A model generated the notes under the pieces. It ran no database searches. It was not told the DNA's origin and saw nothing but the letters and a program-made list of their open reading frames with translations. This document shows positions 31,041 to 33,725 of a stretch of DNA of 45,075 nucleotides, piece after piece; position 1 is the first letter of the stretch, and each line of letters opens with the position of its first letter. A program made the position numbers and the translations under genes. This stretch comes from Nanobdellota archaeon (GTDB lineage: Archaea; Nanobdellota; Nanobdellia; B33-G15): contig QMVD01000001.1 in the NCBI GenBank assembly GCA_003660925.1, forward strand, positions 1 through 45,075, in the 5' to 3' direction.

Positions 31041-32530
31041 TTGATCACCCTCACTCCCATCTCCTTGAGAACCTTCACCAACTTCTCGTCGGGAACATCC
31101 GGCCTCGGGGCAGCCTCCGCCATTATGGCGAGGTTCTTCCTCAGACCGATGGGTGGTCCCTCTGGAGTCTCAACAGCGCATAACCTTCCCCAATGGGTCG
31201 GATGCAGGTCCCTCGCCTCGAAGGCCTCCCTGCTCATCTTGAGGGGAGAGACAACCCTCCTTAAGTGGGAGATGGTGGCGAACATGTTCTGCCTGTCCAA
31301 GTGTTGGCTCACACCATGTCTCCCTCCCACCCATTCTCCAGTGGCGAGCATGCTCCTTATCCTCGAAGTCAACAACTTCGCCCTGGTCGCCCTCAGCAAA
31401 GAGGGAGCCTTCCCCCTCTTTATGAACCTCTCGAAGTTGTACTTTATGTCTCCGACTAACATCCTGAAGGCGAACCTGAAGGCGGACTCCATCAAATCTC
31501 CAGCGAGTTGAAGCCTCTTGTTGGAGTAATGATCCTTATCGTCCGGTCCCAACTTCCCATAAGAGACCATGAGGAGCTTCTTGATGTACTTGGCCAAGGT
31601 GTACGCCTTCTCCAACCTCGACCTCTCGTCGTGCCCTATGTGGGGGAGGAAGAAGTTATCCACTGTATCTATCGCCCTCTTCTTCCTCAACAACTCCTGA
31701 GTTATGCCCATCTTCTTCCCTATGTAATCGAAGGCCTGTTCCCAGTTCTCTATCTCCGCGGTCTGATAGAAGTTTATGTACATGTCCGCCTCCATGTCCT
31801 TATCTGGGGAGACAGCCTCCATGATCTCTTGCTCGCTCTTCATCCCCAAGGCCTTCATCAAGACCACAAAGGGAACCCTGTTTATCCTAGTGAAAGAGAC
31901 GTAGATCGTCCCGTCCCTCGCCTTCTCTATGGTGTGAGGTATCTTGTACTGGCCATCATCGCTGAAGACCTTAGCGACCCATGGATATTGGGAACTCCCT
32001 TTCTCCACGAAGAGCTTGTTAGGGGCCAGATCCTCCACGGAAACTAACACCCTCTCAGTTCCATTTATGATGAAATACCCTCCGGGGTCATCCGGATCCT
32101 CTCCGAGCTCTATCAACTCCTCTCTGCTCTTCCCGTGAAGCACGCAGTACTTGGACTTAACCATCACTGGGACGTTCCCTATGTTTATTACCTGTTTCTC
32201 CTCGTCCACCCCATCCTTACATACCCACATCTCCAGCATCACTGGAGCTTCGTAAGTGAGATCTCTGAGCCTCGCCTCCATGGGAGTTATCCTCCTCCTG
32301 ACCCCATCAGCTTCCCTAACCACCGGTCTCTCCATCCACACCTTCCCAAACTTTATCTCCAAGCTCCCTACCCCTTCGGGGATGATGTCAGAATAAATGC
32401 TTTTGACCTCATCCACCACCTTCTGCATCCCTTGCTCCACGAACTGATTGAAGGAATTCAGCTGATGCTGAACTAGAGAGTTCTCCCTAAAGTAGGCATC
32501 GAGCAATATCTCTTGATATTTTTTATTCAA
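31037..32530 (-). CDS. rpoB2: RNA polymerase subunit B'' (Rpo2N)
   Basis: [53 protein letters not shown] overlap with B'. Confidence 0.98.
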
Positions 32531-32753
32531 TCACAACCACCCTATAATATTTTGTCTCTCCGCTCGTCGGGCTCTTCCTGATGATCTCCACGACATCTCC
32601 TACCTTTGGCTTCAATTCCTTAATTGCTGGGTCGTTTATAAGTATTTTGGGTAGTTGATGCAATTTTATGTTTTTCCCCTTCAAGAGCTCCTCCTTCTCC
32701 TTCTCGCTCAGGATTCTGTGACTTGGGACCAACACGTGCTTCATGAGAATCAC
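32523..32753 (-). CDS. rpoH: RNA polymerase subunit H (Rpo5)
   Basis: [38 protein letters not shown]. Start is GTG 32753 or ATG 32744. Confidence 0.97.
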
Positions 32754-32772
32754 CTTAATGGGCCGGGCGGGA

Positions 32773-32801
32773 CTTCCACCCCTTCTACTGCGAGAAGGTG
32801 C
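32773..32801 (-). other. 29-nt tRNA intron at position 59/60 (T-loop)
   Basis: Strict BHB: T-stem outer helix, central TTCA/TGGA, bulges AA^G and AG^T, inner helix CACCTTCT/AGAAGGGG with one A-G mismatch. Confidence 0.87.
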
Positions 32802-32846
32802 TTTGAACCCGCGACCACCCGGTTAAAAGCCGGGTGCTCTACCAAA

Positions 32847-32877
32847 TGGCTCGCCCCCACAAAGCTTGTGAAGGGCT
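32847..32877 (-). other. 31-nt tRNA intron at position 15/16 (D-loop)
   Basis: Helix GCTC/GAGC with 3-nt bulges AG^A and CA^T, plus an internal hairpin GCCCTTCACAAGCTTTGTGGGGGC. The outer helix is weak (relaxed BHB). Confidence 0.85.
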
Positions 32878-33041
32878 CTGAGCTACCGGCCCGAACCTGC
32901 TTTAATTCTTCAGAAATAAAAATTTTTTCAAACATCTAGAACTTCAACTTCGCATCCTTTTTTAAATGTTTTGCTTTTCTGGGCCAAAAATAAAGGAAAA
33001 CTCGTCAAAATTGTTTTTAATTTTAAAGCCTCCTTCAAGGC

Positions 33042-33725
33042 ATGGTGGACTTCGACGAGCTCATAGATCAGTATCTCATGAAGGAAACTAAGGGGAAGAA
33101 GATAGGCATTTACTATCCCTCCGAGGTGGGGAAGTGTTTGAGGAAGATATGGTACTCTTACAAATATCCCATGGAGGTGAAGCCAGAACTCAGGAAGATA
33201 TTCAAGATGGGGGAGATCCTGCACGATTTCATCGCGGAGGTCCTGAGCAGCGAGAAGACGCCTGGGGTGGAATTGCTTGGGGTGGAGGTCCCCGTCAAGA
33301 TGGAGATGAAGGACTTCGTGGTTTCGGGGAGGGTGGACGACCTCATGCTGATAAAGGAGAGTGGAAAGGAGATCTTAGTTGAGGTGAAGTCTACCAAGGA
33401 CGTGGACAGGGTGAAGAAGCCTGGCGAACATCATGAGGCCCAGATCCAGTTCTACATGTACGCTAAAGGAATTCACGATGGGATGCTCGTCTACGTGGAC
33501 AGGAGAGACCTGAGGACCAAGTCCTTCCCGATCCCTTATGATGAAGAGAAGGCGAAGGAAGTCATGGAGAGGTTCAAAAAACTTCATCATCACCTGACCA
33601 ACGACACCCCTCCAGAACCAGAGGCTAAAAAGGTCTTATGGATGAATTGGATGTGTAAGTATTGCGAGTACGCTGATAGATGTGAAAGAGATTTAAATGA
33701 TGAATGCCAAATCAATACCACATGA
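33042..33725 (+). CDS. Stand-alone Cas4-like PD-(D/E)xK nuclease with 4-Cys Fe-S ligands
   Basis: YPSEVGKC, SGRVDD, VEVKS, AQIQFY, CKYCEYADRC. No array or other cas genes in the window. Confidence 0.88.
   Translation: MVDFDELIDQYLMKETKGKKIGIYYPSEVGKCLRKIWYSYKYPMEVKPELRKIFKMGEILHDFIAEVLSSEKTPGVELLGVEVPVKMEMKDFVVSGRVDDLMLIKESGKEILVEVKSTKDVDRVKKPGEHHEAQIQFYMYAKGIHDGMLVYVDRRDLRTKSFPIPYDEEKAKEVMERFKKLHHHLTNDTPPEPEAKKVLWMNWMCKYCEYADRCERDLNDECQINTT

Follow-up and report, generated by a model that had tools for sequence, protein, structure and literature searches.

The window analysed here (the whole 45,075-nucleotide stretch of DNA) carries on its minus strand an interrupted gene for tRNA-Lys(UUU) (32892..32759), 134 nt long as encoded and 74 nt long once spliced, which was delimited with ARAGORN (run on the spliced form) and by alignment to a paralogue. 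Exon 1 (32892-32878; 15 nt, tRNA positions 1-15) comprises the 5' strand of the acceptor stem, U8 and A9, the 5' strand of the D-stem (GCUC), and A14 and G15, and is followed by an intron of 31 nt at site 15/16 (32877-32847). Exon 2 (32846-32802; 45 nt, positions 16-59) contains the remainder of the D-loop with G18G19, the 3' strand of the D-stem, the anticodon arm, the variable loop, the 5' strand of the T-stem, and U54-A59; the anticodon UUU lies at 32825..32827 (minus strand; aaa on the plus strand). A second intron, of 29 nt at site 59/60 (32801-32773), separates it from exon 3 (32772-32759; 14 nt, positions 60-73), which supplies U60, the 3' strands of the T-stem and acceptor stem, and the discriminator A. 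From exon 1 to exon 3 the minus strand reads GGGCCGGTAGCTCAG / AGCCCTTCACAAGCTTTGTGGGGGCGAGCCA / TTTGGTAGAGCACCCGGCTTTTAACCGGGTGGTCGCGGGTTCAAA / GCACCTTCTCGCAGTAGAAGGGGTGGAAG / TCCCGCCCGGCCCA; the gene ends at the discriminator and CCA is not encoded. The anticodon loop is uninterrupted, and the canonical site 37/38 has no intron.

Removal of both inserts in silico yields a 74-mer that ARAGORN calls as tRNA-Lys(ttt). Only then does a canonical cloverleaf form, with stems of 7, 4, 5, and 5 bp (21 Watson-Crick pairs, no G-U pairs, no mismatches) and a 7-nt anticodon loop with U33; the conserved residues U8, A14, G18G19, G53, U54U55C56, A58, and C61 are all present. An earlier reading made from the letters alone (the sequence-only reading) had described two noncanonical introns of the bulge-helix-bulge (BHB) type, one at 15/16 and one at 59/60, in a gene for tRNA-Lys(UUU) that has no intron at 37/38. 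Our analysis bears this out: the coordinates, insert lengths, and sites are all correct, the strand is minus, and the cuts given by the BHB motif match the junctions that restore the perfect cloverleaf.

The genome also encodes an intronless tRNA-Lys(CUU) (C10:5256-5329), to which the spliced tRNA-Lys(UUU) is identical at 68 of 74 positions with no gaps; the two differ only at position 16, in the anticodon, and in the anticodon stem, where the changes compensate each other. The paralogue has the same sequence on either side of each junction except for position 16, which is U in tRNA-Lys(UUU) and C in tRNA-Lys(CUU). Because the alignment is free of gaps, it fixes both junctions to the nucleotide independently of structure, and it supports the predicted junctions of the sequence-only reading, GCTCAG|TTTGG and TTCAAA|TCCC.

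A promoter-like element of archaeal type, consisting of an A-rich BRE-like run and then TTTTTATTT, is located upstream (32914..32928, minus strand; -36 to -22 relative to tRNA position 1). Similar A/T-rich boxes are found at the same distance from other tRNA genes of the genome, and the element may act as the promoter. The gene for RNA polymerase subunit H (rpoH; Rpb5 C-terminal domain) lies immediately downstream on the same strand (32523..32744) and is followed by rpoB; its ATG is 14 nt past the tRNA 3' end, and the sequence between (32744-32758) contains GGTGA and leaves no space for a separate promoter. With the rpoH start so close behind the tRNA and behind GGTGA, cotranscription with the RNA polymerase operon is plausible, and this configuration suggests a joint tRNA-mRNA transcript.

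A tRNA-Lys(UUU) gene stands upstream of rpoH-rpoB in the related genomes G002 and G025, in many Woesearchaeota and Nanoarchaeota metagenome-assembled genomes (MAGs), and in Undinarchaeales, Hadarchaeota, and Methanosarcinales; as this position is shared across many archaeal phyla, it anchors the orthology of the gene. The order tRNA-Lys(UUU)-rpoH-rpoB, often with tRNA-Asp ahead of it, reappears in groups that range from DPANN to Asgard archaea and Methanosarcinales. On the other side of the tRNA, upstream and divergently oriented, is a gene for a Cas4-like PD-(D/E)XK nuclease (33042-33725, plus strand; PF01930/PF12705). The suggestion that introns shield the arms of tRNA genes from integration is a published speculation (Randau and Soll, cited in PMC3488258); neither an integrase nor an att-like repeat was seen at the tRNA-Lys(UUU) locus.

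Geometry of the two introns

Both introns have four of four central pairs, 3-nt bulges on opposite strands, and a cut after the second nucleotide of each bulge. At 59/60 the central helix pairs U54U55C56A57 with UGGA and is flanked by the bulges AA|G and AG|U; the 5-bp T-stem is the outer helix, and the inner helix has 1+6 bp (C-G, then CCUUCU/AGAAGG). This motif is strict hBHBh'. At 15/16 the central helix pairs G10C11U12C13 of the D-stem with GAGC of the intron, and AG|A and CA|U form the bulges; the inner helix has 6 bp, and the intron contains the inner pairing GCCC/GGGC and the hairpin CACAA-GCU-UUGUG. Here at most one outer pair (A9-U17) is possible, and G002 and G003 have none, so that the 3' cut is expected to lie within the multiloop that joins the acceptor stem to the anticodon stem; since no outer helix stands beside the 3' bulge, the motif is classed as relaxed HBh'/BHL. 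The sequence-only reading was thus right to see BHB geometry in both inserts, but the two are not equivalent: the one at 59/60 is strict, and the one at 15/16 is without an outer helix.

The unconstrained minimum-free-energy fold holds the entire helix-bulge-helix at 15/16 and the inner hairpin of the second intron; the 4-bp central helix at 59/60 is absent from this fold at 37 °C. A hand-built fold with both BHB motifs lies 8.6-13.7 kcal/mol above the minimum between 37 and 80 °C, in a nearest-neighbour model that penalises BHB bulges and with some pairs omitted, and no weight was given to this difference. A scanner found about 80 BHB-like candidates within the 134 nt, which means that such geometry is common by chance, and it was therefore rejected as evidence standing by itself; it gains significance because it coincides with the junctions that the paralogue alignment sets and because relatives conserve it.

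Introns in the host genome and its relatives

The host is a MAG of 0.67 Mb (88.5% complete, 0.79% estimated contamination). Homologues of its RpoB and of its splicing endonuclease (EndA) carry the labels Woesearchaeota, Nanoarchaeota, or Ca. Nanoarchaeia, and its class consists of genomes of 0.4-2 Mb, among them one like that of N. equitans. These labels and the class membership place the host in DPANN (class Nanoarchaeia, Woesearchaeota-like), and the Thermoproteales or ARMAN setting that the sequence-only reading had evoked does not apply.

In the nearest lineages the number of introns in orthologues of tRNA-Lys(UUU) ranges from 0 to 3, and five sites are used. The 15/16 intron is present in the window gene and in G002, and also in the Lys-CUU gene of G003; a D-loop intron after G19 occurs in L044, L045, L046, L048, and L069, an intron at 30/31 in L040, and one at 37/38 in many loci. 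The 59/60 intron is shared by the window gene, G025, L041, L045, L046, L047, L048, L051, and L069. Among relatives, therefore, the 59/60 intron is frequent and the 15/16 intron is rare. An apparently intact tRNA-Lys in L044 (ARAGORN, 1141-1215) proved false; the real gene (1097-1215) begins near 1097 and is interrupted in the D-loop, after G19, by an intron of 44 nt. Putative 59/60 introns in Thorarchaeota and Methanotrichaceae (pattern GGTTCAAA..TCCC) were rejected as chance matches, these genes having on reading only anticodon-loop introns.

All 13 of the 59/60 introns examined, which include those of two tRNA-Asp genes and of the Arg-UCU and Arg-GCG genes of the host, use the T-stem as outer helix and have a central helix of the UUCA x UGAA type. 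Their inner strands differ as much as random sequences do (23% identity), but pairing with the strand's own partner extends to 3.9 of 5 positions, as against 1.97 when partners are swapped. The design of the 15/16 intron (TAGCTCAG|A...GAGCNA|N) was found in 5 of the 401 genomes of the class (a reversed-pattern control gave 0 matches): in the host and in G002, G003, G194, and G272. Three of the five carriers belong to the window's own family and have the intron in a Lys gene; the other two represent two further families and have it in tRNA-Phe(GAA). The inner helices of all five pair completely with their own partners (5/5, versus 2.95 when swapped), and a proper outer helix is absent from every one. 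The two tRNA-Phe(GAA) introns follow the GAGCAA| design (L133, G194:C1:205122-205170; L134, G272:C1:107901-107941), and the G194 gene has more inserts downstream.

Two other tRNA genes of the host have 59/60 BHB introns of the same design and are missed by ARAGORN: Arg(UCU) (C6:9530-9635, minus strand; intron 31 nt, Rfam score 36.1 bits) and Arg(GCG) (C43:3143-3236, plus strand; intron 20 nt, 19.6 bits). The 59/60 intron of tRNA-Lys(UUU) (32773-32801) aligns to that of Arg(UCU) with a score of 5, above all 500 shuffles (-6.5 +/- 3.5); this likeness may reflect transposition between tRNA genes or merely a shared constraint on the 3' end.

By the BHB rule, C30:2830-2920 (minus strand) reads as a tRNA-Ile(UAU) gene with a canonical intron of 17 nt, which ARAGORN reports as Ala(tgc); ATA codons are frequent in the genome. 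A tRNA-Ile(UAU) is unusual in archaea and is known from N. equitans and Korarchaeum. The ARAGORN list for the host also contains duplicates (His-GTG, Asn-GTT, Ser-CGA, Leu-CAG, Ala-TGC, and Thr-GGT), and these doubled isoacceptors may be true duplicates, miscalls of intron-bearing genes, or the contribution of a second strain in the bin. The genome-wide intron scan was anchored on a 7-bp acceptor stem, U8, C61, and TTCR, and it left several known intron-bearing genes (Tyr, Trp, Ser) unassigned, so it gives less than a full catalogue of the host's introns.

The splicing endonuclease and the relaxed 15/16 motif

There is ample documentation of noncanonical and multiple BHB introns, those at 59/60 included, for Crenarchaeota, Nanoarchaeota, and ARMAN (PMC4090602, PMC3239211), and with the further DPANN cases described below these introns make the two-intron tRNA-Lys(UUU) gene a known kind of structure. 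In Thermoproteales and other Crenarchaeota, where up to three such introns occur per gene, simple tRNA finders likewise miss the genes, and the motifs are often relaxed (HBh' or hBH), as at 15/16 here; the noncanonical sites include 20/21, 22/23, 25/26, 29/30, 30/31, 45/46, 53/54, 56/57, and 59/60, and 15/16 is not named in the text of the review (PMC4090602). A eukaryotic nuclear tRNA gene with D-arm and T-arm introns resembles the present one in the BHB-dependent removal of both from a single precursor; the endonuclease there is the eukaryotic one and the introns are unrelated.

The sequence-only reading had called for an endonuclease of broad specificity. The host has one EndA gene (C6:6665-7210; PF01974 and PF02778); counted from its likely start, the predicted product is 170 aa long and has both the N-terminal and the catalytic domain, with an intact Tyr/His/Lys triad. 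The protein is collinear with the alpha4 enzyme of M. jannaschii (1a79; E 1.6e-37, residues 2-170 aligned to 3-171, the only gap being of 1 residue). NEQ205, the catalytic subunit of N. equitans, has a lysine-rich loop of 6 residues between the catalytic Tyr and His that is absent from the host protein: this spacing is 10 residues in the host, in the EndA of 13 relatives, and in M. jannaschii, and 16 in NEQ205. The alignment places no CSL or ASL insertion at the loop sites. Neither PF01974 nor PF02778 revealed a second subunit in the host. The enzyme is accordingly a single alpha-type protein without inserts, and none of the marks of a broad-specificity EndA (two subunit genes, a three-unit protein of about 390 aa, or a lysine-bearing insert) was found in it, contrary to the expectation of the sequence-only reading. 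A single gene of about 175-240 aa is also the form of EndA in 33 of 38 matching genomes of the class. The RtcB ligase is present in the host as well (PF01139; C9:15212-16516, 574 bits).

The host differs in this respect from Crenarchaeota and from ARMAN-2. Crenarchaeota have a heterotetrameric (alpha-beta)2 EndA with a Crenarchaea-specific loop, and the host has one alpha-type gene in which this loop is absent. ARMAN-2, also a DPANN archaeon, has a T-loop intron at exactly 59/60 in tRNA-Cys, and its own EndA cleaves this intron in vitro; excision depends on the BHB motif there and, to judge from sequence, would do so here. That enzyme is a three-unit epsilon2 protein with an ASL loop, in contrast to the single 170-aa alpha-type gene of the host; the Cys intron is relaxed hBH, as opposed to the strict hBHBh' at 59/60 here, and no 15/16 intron was reported from ARMAN-2 (PMC3239211). 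The DPANN lineages of Kaneta et al. 2018 show the association seen in the host: that paper describes an alpha4-type EndA in Pacearchaeota, Woesearchaeota, and others together with a marked rise in noncanonical and multiple tRNA introns, and notes that some tRNAs in such genomes stay unpredicted (PMC5829648). The authors credit the breadth of these enzymes to an 'L3' loop of the N. equitans/ARMAN-2 type (PMC5829648), and no such insert appears in the alignment of EndA from the host and 13 relatives.

According to two of these sources, the strict 3-4-3 hBHBh' motif is a requirement of alpha4 enzymes, and the ability to cleave relaxed motifs goes with an (alpha-beta)2 or epsilon2 enzyme or with specific loops (PMC3239211, PMC5829648). 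The co-occurrence in five genomes of the relaxed 15/16 motif and a predicted alpha4-like EndA without inserts is a misfit with this rule, and it is the only unusual point of the locus. In at least five Nanoarchaeia genomes from three families a conserved 15/16 intron interrupts an essential Lys or Phe tRNA; we tentatively propose, at somewhat less than even confidence, that it is removed by a lone, insert-free, alpha4-like EndA.

The published restriction itself speaks for a different explanation, in which the 15/16 intron requires a second subunit or a cofactor that was missed, either because it falls in the unassembled 11.5% of the host genome (88.5% complete) or because it is too divergent, or in which the precursor refolds so as to close the 3' site. 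We consider this unlikely, though it is the most serious of the competing accounts. As regards a missed partner, exactly one PF01974 match was found in each of the five genomes with a 15/16 intron, including ones that are 93% and 97% complete; in the two from other families (97% complete) this search gave no second homologue, and the Tyr-His spacing is equally short. In the window's own family (four genomes searched) there is one PF02778 match each, in the same reading frame. In G013 and G029, whose genomes resemble that of N. equitans, the PF01974 profile does pick up the second subunit, and a phmmer search of all host ORFs with the alpha protein as query returned nothing below E = 0.4. As regards refolding, a 2-bp closure (A9-U17a / U8-G18) with a 4-nt bulge can be drawn by hand in four of the five 15/16 introns, but it fails in G002.

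Authenticity, proposed processing, and significance of the gene

The concern that standard annotation may miss the gene is justified. ARAGORN calls nothing in the unspliced 134 nt, the Rfam tRNA model scores the gene at 21.8 bits (gathering score 29), and JGI gene calls place a hypothetical ORF of 61 aa over it in four assemblies (loci L125, L126, L128, and L129). The interrupted locus is not an assembly artefact, since six independent metagenome assemblies share, at 100% identity, a 201-nt region that takes in the promoter-like element, both introns, and the beginning of rpoH. The locus is present in SRR6823440, JGI 3300005099, 3300010332, 3300025163, and 3300022552, and ERZ27245482. No second tRNA-Lys(UUU) was found in the 88.5%-complete genome by ARAGORN, the Rfam model, or the intron-aware scan, and AAA codons occur at 22.5 per 1000 in its long ORFs.

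The subthreshold scores of the standard tRNA models are what would be expected of a decaying pseudogene in which the inserts stay in place and AAA is read by a tRNA that escaped detection. This is very improbable: removal of exactly two inserts leaves every stem pair and conserved nucleotide intact, the BHB geometry of both inserts is kept in relatives by compensatory change, the locus is invariant over six samples, the promoter-like box is at the usual distance, and AAA, for which no other tRNA-Lys(UUU) gene was found, is heavily used. Still harder to credit is the idea that the region encodes the 61-aa protein (32935..32750, minus strand) and resembles a tRNA incidentally, for the ORF, despite its listing by JGI in the four assemblies, has no Pfam match and runs across promoter, exons, and introns, and G002, G003, and G025 keep the tRNA exons with wholly different intron parts.

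The locus is therefore, with high confidence, a functional gene for tRNA-Lys(UUU), the only one found in the assembly of this small DPANN archaeon, with introns that would be spliced by EndA and RtcB. Transcription would start from the TATA/BRE-like box about 26 nt upstream, possibly jointly with the downstream rpoH-rpoB operon. In the precursor, mimics within the introns may pair with parts of the mature tRNA, GAGC with the 5' strand of the D-stem and UGGA with U54-A57 of the T-loop, each pairing forming a 4-bp helix with 3-nt bulges on either side. EndA, presumably the lone alpha-type enzyme at the relaxed 15/16 motif too, would cleave all four sites after the second bulge nucleotide, RtcB would join the three exons, and end-trimming and CCA addition would give the finished 74-nt tRNA.

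The sole decoder of AAA found in this genome is thus invisible to ARAGORN and Rfam and is overwritten by a hypothetical ORF in public assemblies; the tRNA complements and completeness estimates of DPANN MAGs of this kind are therefore understated. The rpoH-anchored orthologue, with its zero to three introns, also provides a clean series for the study of intron gain and loss.

If the insert-free enzyme alone removes the 15/16 intron, a broad substrate range in archaeal EndA would need neither the CSL, ASL, or N. equitans loops nor a heteromeric architecture, and the rule that alpha4 enzymes accept strict BHB motifs only would be wrong for a large part of DPANN. The relaxed 15/16 motif and the insert-free alpha-type EndA together offer a cheap and direct test of the model in which architecture and loops account for this breadth.
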